Positions 10,846-19,773 of a stretch of 29,483 bases of DNA are shown here, in pieces (position 1 is the first letter of the stretch; every line of letters starts with the position of its first letter). Location: the IMG/VR virus record IMGVR_UViG_2851976983_000002; one strand, written 5' to 3'. Both the position numbers and the translations under genes were made by a program. Below the pieces are notes generated by a model that ran no database searches, had not been told where the DNA came from, and was given only the letters and a program-made list of their open reading frames with translations. Origin of the DNA: a virus (lineage: Monodnaviria > Loebvirae > Hofneiviricota > Faserviricetes > Tubulavirales > Inoviridae).

Positions 10846-10947
10846 ATGCTCACGACTGAATTTTTCGTTCTTATTCTCTTTGGTGCTGTGCCAGTGCTGA
10901 TATTTTCACTGGCTTTTATTGGCGGAGTCATTACGGGAAGGCGTTAA
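10846..10947 (+). CDS. gVII-like small hydrophobic protein, copy 2
   Basis: Identical copy of 2576..2677. Confidence 0.45.
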   Translation: MLTTEFFVLILFGAVPVLIFSLAFIGGVITGRR

Positions 10948-10949
10948 TC

Positions 10950-11108
10950 ATGCTTTCTGAGACAAATTTTCTTGTGACAATATCCGGCGTGGGTTCTTAT
11001 CCTCCGCTTGTTGCGCTTTTTGGTATATGGGCCATCAGCTGGCTTGCCGGTTTTGGCTTCGGGTATGTGTTTTCCCTGACGAAAACACTTTTTTCATCTT
11101 TTTTGTAA
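10950..11108 (+). CDS. gIX-like small hydrophobic protein, copy 2
   Basis: Identical copy of 2680..2838. Confidence 0.4.
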   Translation: MLSETNFLVTISGVGSYPPLVALFGIWAISWLAGFGFGYVFSLTKTLFSSFL

Positions 11109-11128
11109 TAATACAGGAGTTATATATT

Positions 11129-11404
11129 ATGTCTGTTCGTGAAAAAGCAGTTACGTTCGTAAAAAAACCTCTGGTCATTGCATCTTCCCTGATGCTGGCG
11201 TCCGGTCCTGTTCTGGCTGAAGGGGTGAGTTATACCCCCGGACAGGCAGTTATCAACCAGGATATGATTGACCCGGTGGTGAACTCCATTTTGTCAACGC
11301 TGGGCGTGGTGGGTACCGCAGCATTTCTTTTACTGGGCTTTGGCGTTTCTTTAATGATTGGTTTCCGCGTAGTTAAATCCCTCTTCAGAATGGCATCTTC
11401 CTGA
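11129..11404 (+). CDS. Major coat protein precursor, copy 2
   Basis: Identical copy of 2859..3134. Confidence 0.8.
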   Translation: MSVREKAVTFVKKPLVIASSLMLASGPVLAEGVSYTPGQAVINQDMIDPVVNSILSTLGVVGTAAFLLLGFGVSLMIGFRVVKSLFRMASS

Positions 11405-11425
11405 TGCTGTTTAATTAATAATACA

Positions 11426-11448
11426 GGGGCCGTGCGCCCCTTTTTTAT
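11426..11448 (+). terminator. Rho-independent terminator after coat gene, copy 2
   Basis: Identical copy of 3156..3178. Confidence 0.6.
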
Positions 11449-11459
11449 CAGAGGTCATT

Positions 11460-12788
11460 ATGCGGCTGTTATTTCTGCTTTTATTTCTTCCGTTCTTTTC
11501 ATCTGCTGAGTCATTCACAAGAACATTTGCGCCTTTTAATTTAACGGAGTCTGATGAGGCCTGTATTTCCCGTCCGGCGCTGCAGGGGTCACTTTCCGGG
11601 GCGTTTCGCAGTGATAATACATGGTATGCTGTTGTGGATGGCTGTATTTATATGGCGACAGGTGTGATTGTTGGCAGTGAAACAGGTGATGTCGCCGCTA
11701 CTAACTGGATCCCTGTGGCAGCTTATGAGCCTTCGGATGGTGATGGCGGTGACGGGGATAACAGTTCCGGCGGCAACGGGGACAACAGTTCCGGTGATGA
11801 TAATGATAACGCTGTATCCGGTCAGGTTTCTGCTGTCTATTTGCTTGAACTTGCGGATACACTGAGGAGGCAGGAGTGTGATAATAATCCGCTGTTAATC
11901 TGTGGTTCATTTTCAGGATATTATCCCCCGCGGGAAACTATGCCTTTATCTGAGTTGCGCGCTCACGCAAAATATTACTCCTGCACTCCCAACGGTTCCG
12001 GCTGGCAGAACCTTTATAACAGCACCTGTTATTTAAGGGAGGGTTATAAAATTGAGGACGGGAAAATTGTTCCTGACAACGGTAATGAGGAAGATAACAA
12101 CGGTAGTGAAGATAATAATTCCGGCAGCGATGGCGGTAATAATTCCGGTGGTGGAAATACCGGGAGTGACGGCAATGATAATAACACCGGAAACGGGGAT
12201 GACGGTCTTTCTGATGAGTGGGGAAGAAAAATATATTATCTGCTGAATGCCGGACTGCCTGCCATCGGAGACAAAATTGACAGTTTTCATAGCAGCTACA
12301 TTGAACTTCAGAATAAAACCCTTGTTACCATGGATTATATGACAGAAAGGCAGGTGAAATATTTACACAGCATTGATGAAAAATTTGGCGCACTGACAGA
12401 GCCGGATAAAAACTACTCTTCGTCTCAGGCGCAGTTTAACAGCACTATGCAGGGGATTATTGAGAACGGTATAAGTTCAGTGGAGCAGGGCGTACAGGAC
12501 CGGATTCAGGAACTTATTCCCCTGATTGAAGATTATGTGCCTGTGCTTAATTTTTCCGGCATTATTCCTCAGGGCTTCTTCGGCAATAACAGGGATGTCT
12601 GTGTGCCACTGGATTTAAGTTTTTCATTCCGGCCTTTCGGGGGTGAGGAAATGCCCTTTAATCTCTCCACGGAAGGTGTCTGTCGTATTTATGACGGTTA
12701 TCTGCGGGAGGTTATTCGCTTTTTTATTTATGTCATCACCGCAGTGTCATTAGTCATCCTGGTTGATAAATCATTATCCGGTAGGTAA
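11460..12788 (+). CDS. gpIII-like adsorption protein, copy 2
   Basis: Identical copy of 3190..4518. Confidence 0.8.
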   Translation: MRLLFLLLFLPFFSSAESFTRTFAPFNLTESDEACISRPALQGSLSGAFRSDNTWYAVVDGCIYMATGVIVGSETGDVAATNWIPVAAYEPSDGDGGDGDNSSGGNGDNSSGDDNDNAVSGQVSAVYLLELADTLRRQECDNNPLLICGSFSGYYPPRETMPLSELRAHAKYYSCTPNGSGWQNLYNSTCYLREGYKIEDGKIVPDNGNEEDNNGSEDNNSGSDGGNNSGGGNTGSDGNDNNTGNGDDGLSDEWGRKIYYLLNAGLPAIGDKIDSFHSSYIELQNKTLVTMDYMTERQVKYLHSIDEKFGALTEPDKNYSSSQAQFNSTMQGIIENGISSVEQGVQDRIQELIPLIEDYVPVLNFSGIIPQGFFGNNRDVCVPLDLSFSFRPFGGEEMPFNLSTEGVCRIYDGYLREVIRFFIYVITAVSLVILVDKSLSGR

Positions 12789-12790
12789 AT

Positions 12791-13150
12791 ATGCCAGCTG
12801 TTTTTATGGGACTGACCGTCTTTTTTAAGGATATGATGATATTTCTGGTGCCGTTTATTTTCCGGTGCCTCCTGCGTTTTTTTCTCCTCAAGTCCGTGAT
12901 TGCACTGACCACGGTCGGGGTCTGGTATGGGTTTTACAGCGTTTTTATTTCCTTCGTGAATGAAAAGTTTTCTTCCCTGATGCTGACCTCTCCGGTATTC
13001 ACGCATCCGGTCTGGATCAGCGTGTCCAGCCTGTTTCCGGATAACCTTCCGGTCTGCCTGAATATTATTACCGGCGCATGGTCGCTGTATTTTGCCTTCC
13101 GGGTGAAGGCTTTCATTCTCGGAAAACTGACACTGGGTTTAATGAAGTAG
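12791..13150 (+). CDS. gpVI-like minor coat protein, copy 2
   Basis: Identical copy of 4521..4880. Confidence 0.7.
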   Translation: MPAVFMGLTVFFKDMMIFLVPFIFRCLLRFFLLKSVIALTTVGVWYGFYSVFISFVNEKFSSLMLTSPVFTHPVWISVSSLFPDNLPVCLNIITGAWSLYFAFRVKAFILGKLTLGLMK

Positions 13151-13157
13151 GGGTGTT

Positions 13158-14414
13158 ATGGCTGTTTACTGGGTGACAGGAAAAATGCGCAACGGGAAGG
13201 GGCTGTTCTGCTCCATGGTGGCAAAACAGTTTTACCGTCGCGGACACAGAATTGCGGCAAATTACCCGCTTGATACTGAAAAAATGGACCCGGCTTCATC
13301 GCATCCGTTGACCGTGCTTCCGGCCCGTCCTCGTCCTGAAGATTTCTGGGCGCTGGGGCGTGGTTGTGATGAAAATGAGAAGGAGCGGTTTGGTGCGTTA
13401 TTTCTGGATGAGGTCGGAACATGGCTTAACGGCACATCTTCCGGCCGGGAATACCTGGAATATTACAAATGGTTTGTACAGTCCGGGAAACTGGGCTGGG
13501 ATGTTTATATTCAGGTGCAGGATGAATCCGCCGTTGACAGCAAAATATTTAAATCCACGGGTGAGCTGATTGTCCGCTGCCGTCGTCTTGATCGTATTCG
13601 TGTCCCGGTCGTGTCCGATATTCTGGAACTCTGCATGCCGGATAAGTTTGGCGATACGGGCAGCCGGAAAGGGCTTCTGCCGCACCTGATTTCGGCAAAA
13701 ATTTATATCGGTGTTCCCCGGGCGAATTCCCGTCCCAATGAATCCCGCGTTTTTTATGCGCCGTCCTTTTACGGTATCCATCCGACAAACATGGTATTTG
13801 ATGACGGAATGGAACTGCTCGGAACGGGTGAGCATCAGCGGGTCTGTGATATGCGCGCCATGTATTCCCTGTTGCCCGGCAGAACCCTCCGGCAGTTCCG
13901 GCGGCTGCGTGAGCGGCAGGAGAAAGGGGATTTGCAGACCTTCACGGCAGAGGAACGAAAGGAGCAGCAACAGGCGCGCCGTAAAAAACTGTTGTCCGTT
14001 GTGGTGGGTGGCCTGTTTTTCTGGTTCTGGGGACGTCTTGTGCTGGATTTTTTCTCCGGCACACCTGATGAGCCGGCTGCAACGGTCATGCAGGCACCAC
14101 CACAGGTAATCACCACTGAAAAAGCGCCGCCTGTACCACAGGTCGCATCTCCGGCAGAACTGCCGCTTTCCCGTGTCTGGCGGCTTTCCGGTCATATGCG
14201 TGACGGTAACGGGCAGGGGGTTTTTATTCTGCGCAGTAACAGCAACGTCACGCGGCTTGTGCGCAGTGAACTGCCGTATGAAGGGCTGCTTACTGTACTG
14301 GAACTGGATGGCGAACACATCACGTTTCACAGCGGGTCAGGCAGTGAACCTTCCCCGTCGCGTTCGTCCGGCAGCGGTGCCGGGGGGATGTCCGTTTCTC
14401 TCACCACACCATAG
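13158..14414 (+). CDS. gpI/Zot-like assembly protein, copy 2
   Basis: Identical copy of 4888..6144. Confidence 0.85.
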   Translation: MAVYWVTGKMRNGKGLFCSMVAKQFYRRGHRIAANYPLDTEKMDPASSHPLTVLPARPRPEDFWALGRGCDENEKERFGALFLDEVGTWLNGTSSGREYLEYYKWFVQSGKLGWDVYIQVQDESAVDSKIFKSTGELIVRCRRLDRIRVPVVSDILELCMPDKFGDTGSRKGLLPHLISAKIYIGVPRANSRPNESRVFYAPSFYGIHPTNMVFDDGMELLGTGEHQRVCDMRAMYSLLPGRTLRQFRRLRERQEKGDLQTFTAEERKEQQQARRKKLLSVVVGGLFFWFWGRLVLDFFSGTPDEPAATVMQAPPQVITTEKAPPVPQVASPAELPLSRVWRLSGHMRDGNGQGVFILRSNSNVTRLVRSELPYEGLLTVLELDGEHITFHSGSGSEPSPSRSSGSGAGGMSVSLTTP

Positions 14415-14423
14415 GGACAGAAT

Positions 14424-15644
14424 ATGAATATCAGAAAATTACTTCTCCCGGTGCTGCCTGCAATGGCGCTGTTATTCCCGCTGCCGTCGTTTTCAGCCGG
14501 GACGGAACTGGATATTAACCGCATGAGCCTGCCTGATGCGGTGACGCTGCTCTGGACGGAAGTCCTGAAAACACCGTTCATGCTGGCCCCTGAACTGGTC
14601 AATGACCCGCGGGCCGTCACGCTGCATATTTCACCGGATATCGATGAACGGGAATTTATTACCCGTTATCTCGGTAATATGAATATCAGGATAAGCCGTA
14701 AAAAGGGCGTTGATTATATTTACAGTCATACACCTGCCGCACCAGAGGAGCCGCTGAAATCCCTTGTTTACACGCCCCGTTACCGGACAGTGGAGTATCT
14801 GCATCAGGCGCTTTCCGGTCTGGGTCAGCTTCCGGCCGCACAACAGCCGGTTCAGGGGGCAAACGGTGAGCAGACATGGCAGGCGGTCAGCAGTGGTACC
14901 CGGTTCATCAGTGCATCCGGGGATGTGTTTGTGTTCCGGGGAACGGCCCGGGAAGTTGAGCTTGTCCGGCAGCTTCTGCCGCAGATTGACGTCAGGGCAC
15001 AGGAGGTTTCGGTTGCCGGGTATGTGTTTGAGGTCCAGACCAGTGAGCGTAACGGTTCAGGTCTGGCGCTGGCCGCAGAGCTTTTATCCGGTCGTTTCAG
15101 TATCACCATGAGCAGCGCATCGGGGCTGGATAACTTTATTCGCCTCAGCACGGGGTCTGTTGATGCAATGTATGAGTTATTCAGGACCGACAGCCGTTTT
15201 CAGGTGGTCAGTTCGCCACGTCTGCGCGTTATCTCCGGTAAGGAGGCGGTTTTCAGCGTGGGGTCTGATGTGCCGGTTCTGTCATCAGTGTCATGGCAGG
15301 ATAAGGTTCCGGTGCAGTCCGTGGAATACCGCAGCAGCGGGGCTATTTTTCGGGTAAAACCCACCGTGACGCAGGATGTGATAGGTCTGGATATCGTTCA
15401 GCAGCTGAGTAACTTTGCAAAAACGGATACGGGGGTGAATAACACGCCAACGCTGATAAAGCGCGAGGTGTCCACGTCGGTGAGTCTGAATGACGGTGAT
15501 ATCATTGTGCTGGGCGGACTGGCGGAGAACAAGACATCAAAGGCGCGGACAGGGCTTTCATTTCTGCCGGATGTGTTTGGTTCAGACTCTGATGAACGTG
15601 CGAAAACCGATATCATCGTCGTTCTTCAGGCCCGGCGGGTCTGA
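14424..15644 (+). CDS. gpIV secretin, copy 2
   Basis: Identical copy of 6154..7374. Confidence 0.85.
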   Translation: MNIRKLLLPVLPAMALLFPLPSFSAGTELDINRMSLPDAVTLLWTEVLKTPFMLAPELVNDPRAVTLHISPDIDEREFITRYLGNMNIRISRKKGVDYIYSHTPAAPEEPLKSLVYTPRYRTVEYLHQALSGLGQLPAAQQPVQGANGEQTWQAVSSGTRFISASGDVFVFRGTAREVELVRQLLPQIDVRAQEVSVAGYVFEVQTSERNGSGLALAAELLSGRFSITMSSASGLDNFIRLSTGSVDAMYELFRTDSRFQVVSSPRLRVISGKEAVFSVGSDVPVLSSVSWQDKVPVQSVEYRSSGAIFRVKPTVTQDVIGLDIVQQLSNFAKTDTGVNNTPTLIKREVSTSVSLNDGDIIVLGGLAENKTSKARTGLSFLPDVFGSDSDERAKTDIIVVLQARRV

Positions 15645-16442
15645 GTGTGTGATGATGTCCGTCAGGACATGTAAGGCGGCATGATGAAGTTTCATGTGAC
15701 GCAGATGTCAGCCCGCCGAAACCGGGGAGAGATGACAGAGCAGCAGGAAACAGCGCAACGCGCCGCCTGCCAGACCGCCTTTTAGCGGGCAGCCAGCGAG
15801 ACGAGCGGCGCAAGACGGGAGTCGGACAGTCATTGATGAAGCCGTTCGATGGAATTGATGACTGACAGGCCGTCTTTTTGAGCCGGAATTTTCAAACAGA
15901 GGTCCTGATGTGTTATCGGCGATAATGTTTTACTCGTTACAATTTGCGCACTCTGTTATGTGGCAGTGGACTGGCACATACTGAGGCGGACATAACGTTG
16001 GTTTAGACGCGTACATCCCATAATTACCTGGATTTTCCAGTGCGCCTTATAACTTTCCCAGGTTATAGGGCGTTTTCTTTTTTACTTCCCGGTGTACCCA
16101 CACGAACATCTCAATTCAGCCATCACAACGCCAGAGGCCGTCTTTTGAGCCGGAATTTTCAACAAGAGGTCTGCAGGTGTTATCCGCCGTAATGTTTACT
16201 TGTTATAGTCTTGCTGCTCATCTATGTGAGGGTGAGTAGGTAGTAGACACATAATGTCAGTTAAGGCCGTATATCACGTTGATTGAGACGTAAATTACGT
16301 TGACTGAGACGGATATTTCATTGTATCCATTTCTGGATTTTCCGGGACGCTTTATAACTTTCCCAGGTTATAAGGCGTTTTCTTTTTTTACTCCCGGGTT
16401 TGTGTACCCACACGGACACCTTAATTCAGCTACCACAACGCC

Positions 16443-16535
16443 AGTGCGCATAATGTGTTACACGTTATGTTGAAAAGGCCGCTGCGATACTCTCCACCGC
16501 AGCGGCCTTTTTACACATAACGTCATTGTGCGCAC
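16443..16535. other. attP-like double dif site at the A/B junction
   Basis: Same sequence as 8173..8265; A and B sequences diverge immediately after ...cgcactggcc (16540). Confidence 0.7.
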
Positions 16536-16643
16536 TGGCCCTCAGTTCTCCGGTCTGAATTCGTCGCCCTGATAAGCAGGTTTTAGCAATGGGAAAACAG
16601 GTGGCTCCTGTTATCGATGCAGAATGTCCTGACCTCAGCCGTA

Positions 16644-16720
16644 CCGCACCGCAGCGAGTGGAGGCGGAGAAGGACGACGGGAGGAGGACGCCGACAACGA
16701 CAGGAGCGAGGGCGGTGCGG
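16644..16720. other. Conserved purine-rich element in variant B, closed by CCGCACCGC/GCGGTGCGG (copy at 24666..24742)
   Basis: Same core as A 262..301 but with a different closing inverted repeat (16644..16652 with 16712..16720). Confidence 0.4.
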
Positions 16721-16831
16721 CTGTTGTTCAGACAGACAGCGACGCCCCCGAAACCATCGTTTAATTTTTAACCGCGGAGCGGTTCGGGAGTTCTGTTACA
16801 CCCGATATTTACCGCGGATTCCCGCGATCCT

Positions 16832-17107
16832 TTACTGATTTCCTTTCTCTTTTGCTAGCCTAATCCACATTGCCTTTAGATCCTTGTCCTTTTCCTTTTG
16901 GGCATTGACTGTGGCTATGATTTCTATAGGGTCTATTTTTAAGGCATTGGCTATTTTTAGGCACTTATCATGTCCAATTAAAGCCGTATTATTCCTTATT
17001 TTTGTCATGCTTTGTCTTGGTATTCCGAGATATTGTGCTGTAGCATAGTCGCTTTGCAGTTTTAACCTCTCTTTTAGCTCATCGATGTAATCTTCTAACC
17101 ATTTCAT
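16832..17107 (-). CDS. HTH-type transcriptional regulator (about 91 aa), divergent from rep; repressor candidate
   Basis: HTH-like segment ATAQYLGIPRQSMTKIRNN; start trimmed to the internal ATG with GAAGGGAAC upstream because the 181-aa track ORF would overlap the rep start and promoter. Confidence 0.55.
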   Translation of the reverse strand: MKWLEDYIDELKERLKLQSDYATAQYLGIPRQSMTKIRNNTALIGHDKCLKIANALKIDPIEIIATVNAQKEKDKDLKAMWIRLAKEKGNQ

Positions 17108-17245
17108 ATTTTTGTTCCCTTCGTCTTTTTCCATATTATGTTGCGGTGTAACTTCACTTGCTACGTAACATTTATGTTGACAGTAACATGTCAATGTTCT
17201 TATAGTAACATCTATGGTTACATCTAACTTTTTCATGTTCGTTTT
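17108..17245. promoter_or_regulatory. Divergent promoter/operator region of variant B (copy at 25130..25267)
   Basis: 18-bp perfect palindrome TTGACA-gtaaca-TGTCAA (17177..17194) giving -35 hexamers on both strands; TATAGT 18 nt downstream; four TAACAT repeats (about 17166, 17184, 17205, 17218). Confidence 0.5.
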
Positions 17246-18373
17246 ATGAATTTTGACTGGTTGAAAGCTCGGCAGGACTTTGGTTTTGAACTGCCCCACA
17301 TCAGTAATGTGGGTTATCAGCGCATACACCTTGAAACGGGAGAAGTTTCTTCTCTTTCTCAACCTGTTTTTGTTCATGAAGGATCTTTCAGTGACGTTGT
17401 TTCTATCAAAATTCGTGGTTCTGAACTGACAATGTCCGGTAATCCGTCGCGGTGGGGAAAGCTGGATAACGTTTTTGGATGTGCCTCAATGGATGAATGT
17501 TTTGATGTTTTTAACCAGATCTTGCGCTCGCTTGGGTTGCCGGAGTTTACCAAAGGGCGTCGACGAAAACTTCGTCAATGTGCAGATGGTTCTTACTGCG
17601 GTCATGTATGGGATGGCGCTCAGGTCATTGAGACACATGTGAACAGAAATATTGCTGTTGGTCCGGGTAATGAAAACAGTGTAATACGAGCGCTTTCTAT
17701 GCTGACTTTTCGTCGGATGAATGGAAATCTACGACCTAATGGTCAGACTGCTGATTTCATGACGGATGGGGGGAGAGTTAATTACATGTATCCAAGTATT
17801 TATAATAAAAGTCATGATCTCCTTATCCATTCAATGAAAAAGACAGAGAAAAAATTTGGTACTGATAGTGAAGAATATCGCTACCTCCAGAAATTGTATG
17901 AGTTCCTGCTTATATATGGTGTAATCAGGTTTGAACTGAAATTAAAAAGACGTTTTCTGAAGAAACAGAATCTTACTGACTGGGGTTATGCTGATTTTGA
18001 AGGTGAGTTATATCCTTTATTAAATGAGTTTGTTGATATACATAAAAAAACGAGACCTTCTACTATGGATGTAAAAAGTGTTGCTTCAGAACTTTTAGAG
18101 AAAAAGATAGTTGACACTGTCAGGGCTGCGCACACAACTGCTTTTTATGCGTATTCATGGGCTAACGGCGAGAGATTTGACTTTTCTAAACGACAAGTTC
18201 AGGAGCATCGTGCCAGACTTCGTAAAATTGGTATAGATATCGCGCGGGAATACAATGTTTCTCTGTTTCCTGGCGTCATCATCAGAGAAATTAAAGAGAT
18301 TGAGTTTAATGATGTTGTTGTGAAACCAGATTTTTATCGTGAGCGTAAAGCAGAACTATATCTTGTTGCTTAA
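17246..18373 (+). CDS. Replication initiation protein of variant B (375 aa; family uncertain, not alignable to the variant A Rep by eye)
   Basis: First large gene downstream of the divergent regulator, followed by a gpV-like gene; contains IRFELKLK segment. Confidence 0.55.
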   Translation: MNFDWLKARQDFGFELPHISNVGYQRIHLETGEVSSLSQPVFVHEGSFSDVVSIKIRGSELTMSGNPSRWGKLDNVFGCASMDECFDVFNQILRSLGLPEFTKGRRRKLRQCADGSYCGHVWDGAQVIETHVNRNIAVGPGNENSVIRALSMLTFRRMNGNLRPNGQTADFMTDGGRVNYMYPSIYNKSHDLLIHSMKKTEKKFGTDSEEYRYLQKLYEFLLIYGVIRFELKLKRRFLKKQNLTDWGYADFEGELYPLLNEFVDIHKKTRPSTMDVKSVASELLEKKIVDTVRAAHTTAFYAYSWANGERFDFSKRQVQEHRARLRKIGIDIAREYNVSLFPGVIIREIKEIEFNDVVVKPDFYRERKAELYLVA

Positions 18374-18385
18374 GGAGATTTAATT

Positions 18386-18748
18386 ATGGCTAAGATAACG
18401 CTTGATACCCGTGACCTTCTGATTGTTGTTGTAGAAGAAGGGGATGATGTTATTGAAGTAAATACTTTTTCCTATCAGGAAAAAGATAAGAATGGTGAAC
18501 CAGTATTTAATGATGATGGTTCAAAAAAGATGATTGAGCGTGAATCACGTATACAGAAGATGTTATTAGAGCGTGGTCGCGAGCGTATTGAAATCGTTGT
18601 TCCAGTTAATGAGGGGCAGCCACCATATTCGGTTGGTCGTTATCTTATTCACCCTTCATACTTCAAAGTCAATGAACGCGGAGCCATTAATACAGCACGT
18701 CCATGGGATTTGACATTTATCCCTCTTGATTCAAAAGATGTAAAATAG
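18386..18748 (+). CDS. ssDNA-binding protein (gpV-like)
   Basis: VVPVNEGQPPYSVGRYLIHPSYFKVNERG aligns with the recalled M13 gpV segment ITLDEGQPAYAPGLYTVHLSSFKVGQFG; AAGGAG Shine-Dalgarno. Confidence 0.7.
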   Translation: MAKITLDTRDLLIVVVEEGDDVIEVNTFSYQEKDKNGEPVFNDDGSKKMIERESRIQKMLLERGRERIEIVVPVNEGQPPYSVGRYLIHPSYFKVNERGAINTARPWDLTFIPLDSKDVK

Positions 18749-18830
18749 TAATAAATCTCTTTTTTTATTATTCTGGCAGTGGCGTTTTCTGTCATATAAG
18801 ACGCCATTGTGTTTTGTGAGGCGTTCTAAT

Positions 18831-19136
18831 ATGAACAGTAAAGCAGAGCCTGTTTTTGTAATAAATGTTTATCCTCCAACGTATGGGCGTGACGCTATAA
18901 ATCTTCTTTGCGATTATTACAAAGAGGCTCATAAGTCATTGATTAATTCAGATACGTCTGCTGCCGAAATTATTCTTCATGACTGCGTGCGACGGATTCA
19001 ACTCATCATTAACAATGAGAGTATAAAACTGGATTCTTATGAATTAACAAAATTACTCAGGCTTCATCAGGTATGCGTTGAACTTTTACAACAGTACTGT
19101 TTGCAGGGATTTTCTCCTGAAACAGAAAAACTGTAA
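18831..19136 (+). CDS. Hypothetical protein (101 aa), variant B-specific accessory ORF between gene V and gene VII homologues
   Basis: Intact ORF with GAGG upstream of the second ATG; no counterpart in variant A; no motif recognised. Confidence 0.45.
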   Translation: MNSKAEPVFVINVYPPTYGRDAINLLCDYYKEAHKSLINSDTSAAEIILHDCVRRIQLIINNESIKLDSYELTKLLRLHQVCVELLQQYCLQGFSPETEKL

Positions 19137-19159
19137 TTATCATTCGCCTTAATGAGATT

Positions 19160-19261
19160 ATGTCAGTAGCGGAATTTTTCGTTCTTATTCTCTTTGGCGC
19201 TGTGCCAGTGCTGATATTTTCACTGGCTTTTATTGGCGGAGTCATTACGGGAAGGCGTTAA
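19160..19261 (+). CDS. gVII-like small hydrophobic protein (33 aa)
   Basis: MSVAEFFVLILFGAVPVLIFSLAFIGGVITGRR; the A/B homology breakpoint lies within its first codons. Confidence 0.45.
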   Translation: MSVAEFFVLILFGAVPVLIFSLAFIGGVITGRR

Positions 19262-19263
19262 TA

Positions 19264-19422
19264 ATGCTTTCTGAGGCAAATTTTCTTGTGACAATATCCG
19301 GCGTGGGTTCTTATCCTCCGCTTGTTGCACTTTTTGGTATATGGGCCATCAGCTGGCTTGCCGGTTTTGGCTTCGGGTATGTGTTTTCCCTGACGAAAAC
19401 ACTTTTTTCATCTTTTTTGTAA
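19264..19422 (+). CDS. gIX-like small hydrophobic protein (52 aa)
   Basis: Homologue of 2680..2838 (one Thr to Ala change). Confidence 0.4.
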   Translation: MLSEANFLVTISGVGSYPPLVALFGIWAISWLAGFGFGYVFSLTKTLFSSFL

Positions 19423-19442
19423 TAATACAGGAGTTATATATT

Positions 19443-19718
19443 ATGTCTGTTCGTGAAAAAGCAGTTACGTTCGTAAAAAAACCTCTGGTCATTGCATCTT
19501 CCCTGATGCTGGCGTCCGGTCCTGTTCTGGCTGATGATGTGAGTTATACCCCCGGACAGGCAGTTATCAGTAAAGCAATGATTGACCCGGTGGTGAACTC
19601 CATTTTGTCAACGCTGGGCGTGGTGGGAACCGCAGCATTTCTTTTACTGGGCTTTGGCGTTTCTTTAATGATTGGTTTCCGCGTAGTTAAATCCCTCTTC
19701 AGAATGGCATCTTCCTGA
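19443..19718 (+). CDS. Major coat protein precursor (variant B allele)
   Basis: Same as A except mature N-terminus DDVSYTPGQAVISKAM versus EGVSYTPGQAVINQDM. Confidence 0.8.
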   Translation: MSVREKAVTFVKKPLVIASSLMLASGPVLADDVSYTPGQAVISKAMIDPVVNSILSTLGVVGTAAFLLLGFGVSLMIGFRVVKSLFRMASS

Positions 19719-19737
19719 TGCTGTTTAATTAATAATA

Positions 19738-19761
19738 CAGGGGCCGCGCGCCCCTTTTTTA
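19738..19761 (+). terminator. Rho-independent terminator after coat gene
   Basis: GGGGCCGCGCGCCCC hairpin plus TTTTTT. Confidence 0.6.
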
Positions 19762-19773
19762 TCAGAGGTCATT

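Follow-up and report, generated by a model that had tools for sequence, protein, structure and literature searches.

A putative immunity region with a conserved GTAAC array between the divergent regulator and rep genes of an integrative filamentous prophage

In the filamentous phage CTXphi, three RstR sites are located in the 138-bp ig-2 region between the divergent rstR and rstA genes, repression is allele-specific, and heteroimmune phages have been found to co-integrate (PMC4762005, PMC11509585). For phiRSS0, the product of ORF13 has been linked to superinfection immunity (PMC3816273). It has also been reported that the sites bound by P2 C and Pf4r are repeated and non-palindromic and lie close to the early promoter (PMC8402870).

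The locus described here has a comparable arrangement. A gap of 138 bp (17108-17245) separates a gene encoding a small helix-turn-helix (HTH) regulator from the divergent rep gene in the window, by which we mean the whole 29,483-nt stretch of IMG/VR record IMGVR_UViG_2851976983_000002. This gap is likely to serve an integrative filamentous prophage as its immunity (repressor-operator) region. The decisive support for this reading, which corrects that of the first-pass annotation, comes from the comparison of homologous sequences.

Prophage units and the regulator protein

Four filamentous (Inovirus) prophage units, joined head to tail in the order A-A-B-B, make up the window (A-A, 1-16540; B-B, 16541-29483). 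The two copies of each variant are 100% identical, at an offset of 8270 for variant A and 8022 for variant B, and the entire 138-bp region is repeated at +8022 in the second variant-B unit, again with 100% identity. Both variants carry morphogenesis genes for a pIII-like coat protein, Zot/pI and secretin/pIV at 94-100% identity, and they differ in their regulation and replication modules. In variant B, rep is followed by a gene for a gene V-like ssDNA-binding protein. The Rep of variant A (9264-10490) is of the Rep_trans type, and divergent from it is an ORF of 71 aa (8747-8962, minus strand), whose N-terminus resembles a ribbon-helix-helix and which has no Pfam match. The two variants are probably two heteroimmune phages co-integrated in tandem. 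DNA searches of deposited phages, with the regulatory/replication region and with the structural region, returned neither near nor distant matches, and the Rfam search of the whole window returned no match.

Upstream of the first variant-B unit, in the large intergenic stretch from the secretin gene to a putative attP hairpin, there are two diverged direct repeats of ~270-310 bp (15876-16444), whose segments 15876/16143, 16028/16333 and 16092/16402 are 84-88% identical. The hairpin is near-perfect and ~100 nt long (16440-16539; ssDNA fold -43.7 kcal/mol, z -11.3), and equivalent positions are expected in each unit. The dif-like arms AGTGCGCATAA and TTATGTTGAAA are part of its stem, in which a bulge of unpaired bases takes the place of the dif central region, and the hairpin has the appearance of a folded single-strand attP for XerCD of the CTXphi type. 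A full E. coli dif site, allowing up to 3 mismatches, was found nowhere in the window.

Table 1. Positions of the genes, predicted promoter elements and predicted operators in the variant-B units of the window
Feature	Position	Strand	Evidence or remark
91-aa HTH regulator, putative immunity repressor, variant B	16832..17107	-	
Candidate P_reg -10, CATAAT	17135..17140	-	nAnnnT, 4-5/6 to TATAAT, 6-7 nt left of first GTAAC in 12/12 regions
O1 (predicted), GTAAC-TTCACTT-GCTAC	17148..17164	+	GTAAC invariant in 12/13 sequences; right end [T/A]AC in all
Inferred weak P_reg -35, TAGCAA	17158..17163	-	3/6; within right half of O1
O2 (predicted), GTAAC-ATTTATG-TTGAC	17165..17181	+	Right half is the P_rep -35; ACGTAAC invariant in alignment
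P_rep -35, TTGACA	17177..17182	+	Promoter scan; TTGAC invariant in 9-sequence alignment, present in 13/13 anchored regions
O3 (predicted), GTAAC-ATGTCAAT-GTTCT	17183..17200	+	Fills promoter spacer; includes non-conserved TGTCAA
P_rep -10, TATAGT	17201..17206	+	Promoter scan
O4 (predicted), GTAAC-ATCTATG-GTTAC	17205..17221	+	Over -10 end and predicted rep start; GTAAC-N7/8-GTTAC in all 12 homolog regions
rep, gene II-type replication initiator, G2P/Phage_CRI	17246..18373	+	Pfam G2P_X_C 1.5e-19, Phage_CRI; phrog_702 replication protein
Regulator gene, second copy (variant-B unit 2)	24854..25129	-	100% identical, offset 8022
O1-O4 array (predicted) with P_rep, second copy	25170..25243	+	GTAAC 25170, 25187, 25205, 25227; GTTAC 25239

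The start of the regulator was placed at the Met at 17107, which gives a protein of 91 aa, because 90-aa homologs begin at the same residue and an AAGGGA Shine-Dalgarno sequence is located upstream. The protein did not reach the curated Pfam cut-offs for HTH families (HTH_26, 18.6 bits with a cut-off of 22; Phage_CI_repr, 16.8 with 22; HTH_3, 16.5 with 23) and had no significant sequence match among solved structures. HTH_3 was matched by five of 11 regulator homologs (best E 2.9e-5), and in PHROGs the regulator was assigned to phrog_4441 and phrog_638, which are annotated as HTH/regulator. An AlphaFold model built with 11 homologs (pLDDT 89) has six helices, and its predicted arrangement is that of the five-helix Cro/CI-type fold with a helix 2-turn-helix 3 motif. 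The structural matches of this model are dimeric operator-binding HTH proteins, namely 434 Cro, P22 c2, C.AhdI and HigA, although their Foldseek E-values are weak (best 0.09). As modelled, the regulator is an XRE/Cro-CI-fold DNA binder, in which no peptidase or sensor domain was found.

A profile search of 1.84 billion representatives identified 2056 relatives at E<=1e-3 and three at E<=1e-30; the superfamily is broad, and the close subfamily narrow. The predicted recognition helix, RQSMTK[VI], is near-invariant across the homologs, in step with the invariant half-site described below. Comparison with the profile of the P2 C repressor (PF07022) by hhalign gave a probability of 0.3%, that is, no relationship beyond the HTH. 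Similarity to RstR was not detected, as no Vibrio phage was present among the 41 tblastn hits at E<=0.01 in a collection that may lack CTXphi. The reverse-oriented HTH proteins of phiRSS0 (ORF13), phiLf and phiSHP2 are 24-28% identical to the regulator (E 1e-3 to 9e-3), with matches spanning about 86-91% of the query, and an uncharacterised HTH protein of P2-like Burkholderia phages is 39% identical.

Promoters and the GTAAC array across homologs

The promoter scan identified TTGACA-18-TATAGT (17177-17206), facing rep, with a score of 11/12. This score was reached by 15 (0.75%) of the 2000 dinucleotide shuffles of the 138-bp region that served as the control. The spacing of 18 nt between TTGACA and TATAGT on the plus strand is as stated in the first-pass annotation. 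The predicted transcription start of rep is at about 17213-17215. In the homologs, the -10 element takes the forms TATAGT, TATCGT, TACAGT, TATATT, TAGATT and TAGGAT, at 17-18 nt from the -35. No HTH ORF that could encode a second, antagonistic regulator on the lytic side lies between P_rep and rep, which begins 40 nt downstream.

For the regulator gene, the most likely promoter judging from conservation is CATAAT (17140-17135) with a weak -35 (17163-17158), a combination that falls below the threshold of the promoter scan. In 11 of 12 regions, the distance between the candidate -10 and the regulator ATG is 26-29 nt; in locus L023 it is 42 nt. Its forms in the homologs are GATAAT, GATACT, CATACT, TATACT, TAGAAT, TAAACT and TACGAT, so that A2 and T6 are kept in all 12, and the -35 is weak in every homolog (TAGCTA, TAGCTG, TTCCCA, TACACC and others).

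Where transcription from P_rep is predicted to begin, there is also the ATG of a short upstream ORF of 11 codons (17214-17249; ATG GTT ACA ... TTA TGA). The stop codon of this ORF shares bases with the start codon of rep (ATGA), in front of which no obvious Shine-Dalgarno sequence is present. This ORF was considered as a translational coupler and rejected. L021 has it as well, in L014 it is in frame with no stop codon, and the distant homologs lack it; with this distribution it is probably incidental.

The gap contains GTAAC on the plus strand at 17148, 17165, 17183 and 17205 and the inverted form GTTAC at 17217-17221. These five copies fall within 74 bp, compared with 47 copies in the whole 29.5-kb window, and none of the 2000 shuffles contained five, the maximum being four. 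The only half-site-perfect inverted repeat is that of O4, and GTAAC-N7/8-GTTAC occurs in the whole window only at O4 and its second copy. The outermost positions of the right halves are conserved across the homologs as [T/A]AC, GAC, TTC and TAC for O1 to O4, and in O3 the GTAAC and GTTC blocks are invariant at a fixed N8 in all homologs, with the intervening 8 nt being variable. The O2-O3 spacing is constant at 18 bp (19 in L023). The centre-to-centre spacing of the half-sites, 12-13 bp, is above the usual ~10.5 bp. Furthermore, the right halves of O2 and O3 match GTTAC at just 3/5 positions. Because these halves are poor matches and are also constrained by promoter function, the reading as four pseudo-palindromes is not unique, and the four same-strand copies of GTAAC could instead be read as direct repeats. 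A LexA-like box (CTG-N10-CAG) was not present in 16800-17400.

Twelve database homologs of the regulator (59-99% identity) were traced to their contigs, and others were obtained from GTDB genomes (Aeromonas salmonicida and Candidatus Symbiopectobacterium) and from IMG/VR. Wherever a homolog contig reaches upstream, the regulator gene is divergent from an inovirus rep. When the 13 intergenic regions (the window and 12 others) were anchored on the P_rep -35, one layout was found in 12 of them (the window and 11 others; nine of 11 distinct sequences). Relative to the -35, this layout begins with GTAAC at -29 to -31 and (A)CGTAAC at -12/-13, followed by the -35 itself, TTGAC[A/G]. It continues with GTAAC at +6, exactly 8 variable bases and GTTC(T), and it ends with a TAnnnT -10 at 17-18 nt, GTAAC over the -10 end, 7-8 variable bases and GTTAC. 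The distance between the GTAAC copies of O3 and O4 is 22 bp in the window and 21-27 bp among the homologs. The blocks are conserved while the bases between them are free to vary, which points to protein contacts at the GTAAC blocks.

The remaining region is that of L020, from Candidatus Symbiopectobacterium endolongispinus, in which O2 is lacking and O1 is fused to the -35 region. This cassette (about 2870-3000) is degraded, and the tblastn match to its regulator begins at query residue 13, which suggests that the gene is cut at the N-terminus. Such degradation would fit the decay of a prophage in a symbiont genome.

Searches of IMG/VR provided a further comparison of regulator and array. The regulator profile identified 3 contigs, and a scan with the 25-base pattern TTGACNGTAAC-N8-GTTC-N4-10-GTAAC-N7-8-GTTAC returned exactly the same 3. 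A looser pattern, GTAAC-N12-13-GTAAC-N7-8-TTGACNGTAAC, gave 58 loci in IMG/VR and metagenomes with only 4 true arrays; almost all of the others were 18-nt periodic coding repeats and were rejected as operator arrays.

In E. coli JNE112863, the rep gene is 97% identical to that of the window, and the HTH gene and the intergenic region are unrelated. The exchanged segment of about 415 bp comprises the regulator and the gap, with its limits at the stop codon of the regulator and the ATG of rep. Among E. coli complete genomes, this rep is shared by JNE112863 only, and the immunity type of the window was found only in draft and metagenome contigs. In L023, a complete array is located beside a Rep of the Rep_trans family, while in L013 (Spartinivicinus) the Rep is Phage_GPA, the array is degraded and the recognition helix of the regulator is altered (RQAISKL, not RQSMTKV). 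Taken together, the swap in JNE112863, the full array of L023 and the degraded array with an altered helix in L013 argue from sequence that the array belongs to the regulator and follows it, not Rep.

The JNE112863 locus (NZ_AP045072.1 1608967-1635433) comprises at least 3 filamentous prophage units in tandem, which add two more distinct HTH/intergenic cassettes, and it appears to be a co-integration hotspot for heteroimmune variants. A separate block, CGGTTCGGGAGTTCTGTTACACCCGATATTTACCGC (16783-16815), lies just 3' of the regulator stop codon in the window; it folds into a small hairpin whose loop contains GTTCTGTTAC (z -2.7). Those JNE112863 units that have other regulators but related Reps retain it. 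The block is a candidate for the plus-strand origin or nick site, and it may resemble the nick region of f1.

A possible repressor switch and alternative readings

In the reading that we favour, the 91-aa Cro/CI-fold protein would recognise the half-site GTAAC, and a dimer of it would bind each of four adjacent 17-18-bp pseudo-palindromes of the form GTAAC-N7/8-GTTAC; we infer binding, dimer stoichiometry, the direction of regulation and the location of P_reg from conserved sequence. P_rep would drive rep and presumably the genes downstream. O2 would cover the P_rep -35, O3 the spacer and O4 the -10 end and the start, so that the occupation of O2-O4 would keep RNA polymerase off P_rep and block rep transcription. 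With P_rep shut, replication and virion production would be off, and there would be immunity to phages with the same cassette. Regulator bound at O1 might repress its own promoter, P_reg, whose leader would be about 20 nt. The most speculative element is a possible stimulation of P_reg from O2, whose centre is about 45 bp upstream of the start predicted for P_reg, in the manner of lambda CI at P_RM.

The first-pass annotation had proposed a related model, in which a perfect palindrome holds back-to-back -35 hexamers and a single repressor bound to TAACAT operators blocks both promoters. Its general setting, in which a strong rep promoter lies in a regulatory gap that separates rep from a divergent HTH regulator, agrees with the comparative evidence, and the hexamer TTGACA can indeed be read on both strands (17177-82 and 17194-89). 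However, in TTGACAGTAACATGTCAA (17177-17194), the supposed perfect palindrome, only 12 of 18 positions pair, as the reverse complement of the central GTAACA is TGTTAC. What is left is an inverted repeat of two 6-bp arms separated by 6 nt, and an inverted repeat of equal quality arises in 27% of the shuffles, that is, at chance level. The left arm, which is the P_rep -35, is conserved, whereas the right arm, TGTCAA (17189-17194), is not: it is replaced by ATTGGTATG in L014 and reads TGGCAA in L021, although the regulators of these loci are 98% and 99% identical to that of the window, and it is missing in every more distant homolog. For the minus-strand TTGACA (17194-17189), the best -10 is AATGTT, at a spacing of 16 nt, which would bring the total to 9/12. 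This -10 scores only 3/6 and is merely the GTAAC of O2, and the promoter scan yielded no minus-strand promoter. The lack of an acceptable -10 makes this hexamer unlikely to be the conserved promoter of the regulator, although it could supply a second regulator promoter in the phage lineage of the window. The motif TAACAT was said to occur four times and does occur in three exact copies (17166, 17184 and 17206, at intervals of 18 and 22); the supposed fourth is a one-mismatch variant, either TTACAT at 17218 or TAACTT at 17149, and the motif is not enriched over the whole window. Conservation covers GTAAC and not TAACAT, since GTAAC is the invariant core and the "AT" that follows it is specific to the lineage of the window. 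It is therefore very improbable that this model holds in full. A repeat motif that overlaps the promoter very probably does form the operator array of the regulator, according to the comparative evidence, with GTAAC in place of the motif first specified, and occlusion by the repressor is plausible for P_rep, while the putative regulator -10 would be partly covered. The original observation was thus confirmed in part, and its interpretation is partly supported. A different reading keeps the same repressor and promoters and has four direct copies of GTAAC recognised, with a true inverted partner only at O4. It would account for four same-strand copies at 17-18-22 bp. The 22 bp between O3 and O4 in the window bracket the -10, as O1/O2 of P2 do (NC_001895 annotation), there is a weak Phage_CI_repr match (E 0.009), and P2 C and Pf4r have been described as dimers on direct repeats (PMC8402870). 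However, the comparison with the P2 C profile (0.3% probability) revealed nothing beyond the HTH, and neither P2 C nor Pf4r is among the top fold matches. Moreover, the O3-O4 spacing is inconstant (21-27 bp), the 17-18-bp spacing does not correspond to whole helical turns, each GTAAC is followed at 13-17 nt by non-random bases ([T/A]AC, GAC, TTC, TAC), and the GTTAC of O4 is invariant. On balance, we consider recognition of direct repeats to be rather unlikely.

The remaining alternatives concern the function of the array or of the protein. The GTAAC repeats are located directly upstream of rep and might be Rep-binding iterons or part of the plus-strand origin instead of operators; in addition, GTTCTTATAGT may loosely resemble the f1 nick region, GTTCTTTAATAGT. 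Against this, there is no array beside the 97%-identical rep of JNE112863, the array is found beside a Rep_trans Rep in L023 and, in part, beside a Phage_GPA Rep in L013, and the separate conserved hairpin block at 16783-16815, which tracks the Rep type, is a better candidate for the origin. A role of the repeats as iterons is accordingly the least probable of the readings, with hardly any likelihood. It might also be that the HTH protein does bind the array and that its main role, in productive infection, is that of an activator or a Cro-like modulator and not that of the repressor responsible for lysogeny and immunity. The protein is small and has no oligomerisation or peptidase domain, its top structural matches include Cro and the restriction-modification C-proteins, which are activators at low dose, and chronic virion production is possible in filamentous phages. 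Nevertheless, we see little chance of such a role: sites over the -35, spacer, -10 and +1 of P_rep have a repressing geometry, a near-consensus P_rep (11/12) should not need activation, and the cassette is swapped whole between near-identical phages, which is a hallmark of immunity specificity. Furthermore, the link of phiRSS0 ORF13, a distant relative of the regulator, to superinfection immunity is a genetic one (PMC3816273).

The repressor-operator region thus remains the reading that we prefer. A bolder version of it would have the four same-facing operators act as a polar cooperative array of ~74 bp that both silences P_rep and activates the regulator's own -35-less promoter. We regard this version as doubtful. 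If it were true, a single protein would operate an autoregulated switch similar to that of lambda P_RM, in a compact form not known from filamentous phages. The GTAAC code, which extends from E. coli as far as Aeromonas and marine metagenomes, would in that case mark out a single immunity group across genera. In the plainer version, the concept is already known from CTXphi, and the region would be an ordinary phage immunity switch. The analysis provides a testable operator code (GTAAC-N7/8-GTTAC, four sites) and a promoter map for an uncharacterised repressor subfamily, which is found in integrative filamentous prophages of E. coli and other Gammaproteobacteria. Such cassettes would decide which filamentous phages co-reside in tandem at one locus, for instance the A-A-B-B of the window or the other cassette mix that JNE112863 carries, and also whether the prophages replicate. 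The practical value is modest and lies in the annotation of immunity types of inoviral prophages and in a compact repressor/promoter pair.

Relation to described immunity systems

The predicted fold of the regulator is that of the proteins of lambdoid OR and C-protein operators (434 Cro, P22 c2, C.AhdI). As in those operators, the sites are 17-18 bp long with conserved outer half-sites and a variable centre, and several of them, which differ in their degree of symmetry, adjoin one another between two back-to-back promoters, of which one is strong and the other has no good -35. In contrast to these systems, there are four sites instead of three or two, O1-O3 abut with a gap of 0-1 bp, all perfect half-sites face one way, and the Pfam HTH scores of the regulator are sub-threshold. 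Furthermore, the lytic-side promoter is not followed by a gene for a second regulator (cro). P2 C and Pf4r are small immunity repressors, as the regulator is predicted to be, and Pf4r is from the filamentous prophage Pf4. However, P2 has face-to-face promoters and two sites, and its C protein has no profile similarity to the regulator, while Pf4r controls xisF4 and not rep directly.

In phiRSS0 (ORF13), phiLf and phiSHP2, which are dif-integrating filamentous phages, a reverse-oriented small HTH gene likewise adjoins the intergenic/attP region. The similarity of ORF13 to the regulator is marginal, and ORF13 differs in its size (156 aa), in having attP inside it and in having no defined operators.

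The closest counterpart is CTXphi, although the two systems differ in several respects. There is no detectable similarity between the repressors by tblastn, the Rep of variant B is G2P/Phage_CRI whereas RstA of CTXphi is Rep_trans, the GTAAC half-site and the four contiguous sites are specific to the regulator family of the window, and there is no LexA-like box nearby. The likenesses are found in the organization of the locus. In both cases, a small HTH repressor (here putative) without a peptidase domain is encoded divergently from rep, as it is in every homolog locus for which the contig covers the sequence upstream of this gene, and CTXphi is likewise integrative, by the XerCD-type route. 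Both have a compact intergenic region of 138 bp, in which several sites, here predicted, cover the rep promoter. The repressor and intergenic cassette is exchanged between near-identical phages, for which a role in immunity is suggested here by sequence comparison, and different types are co-integrated in tandem. By this analogy, the 138-bp gap may be regarded as an immunity cassette like rstR/ig-2 and as its probable functional counterpart in this prophage.
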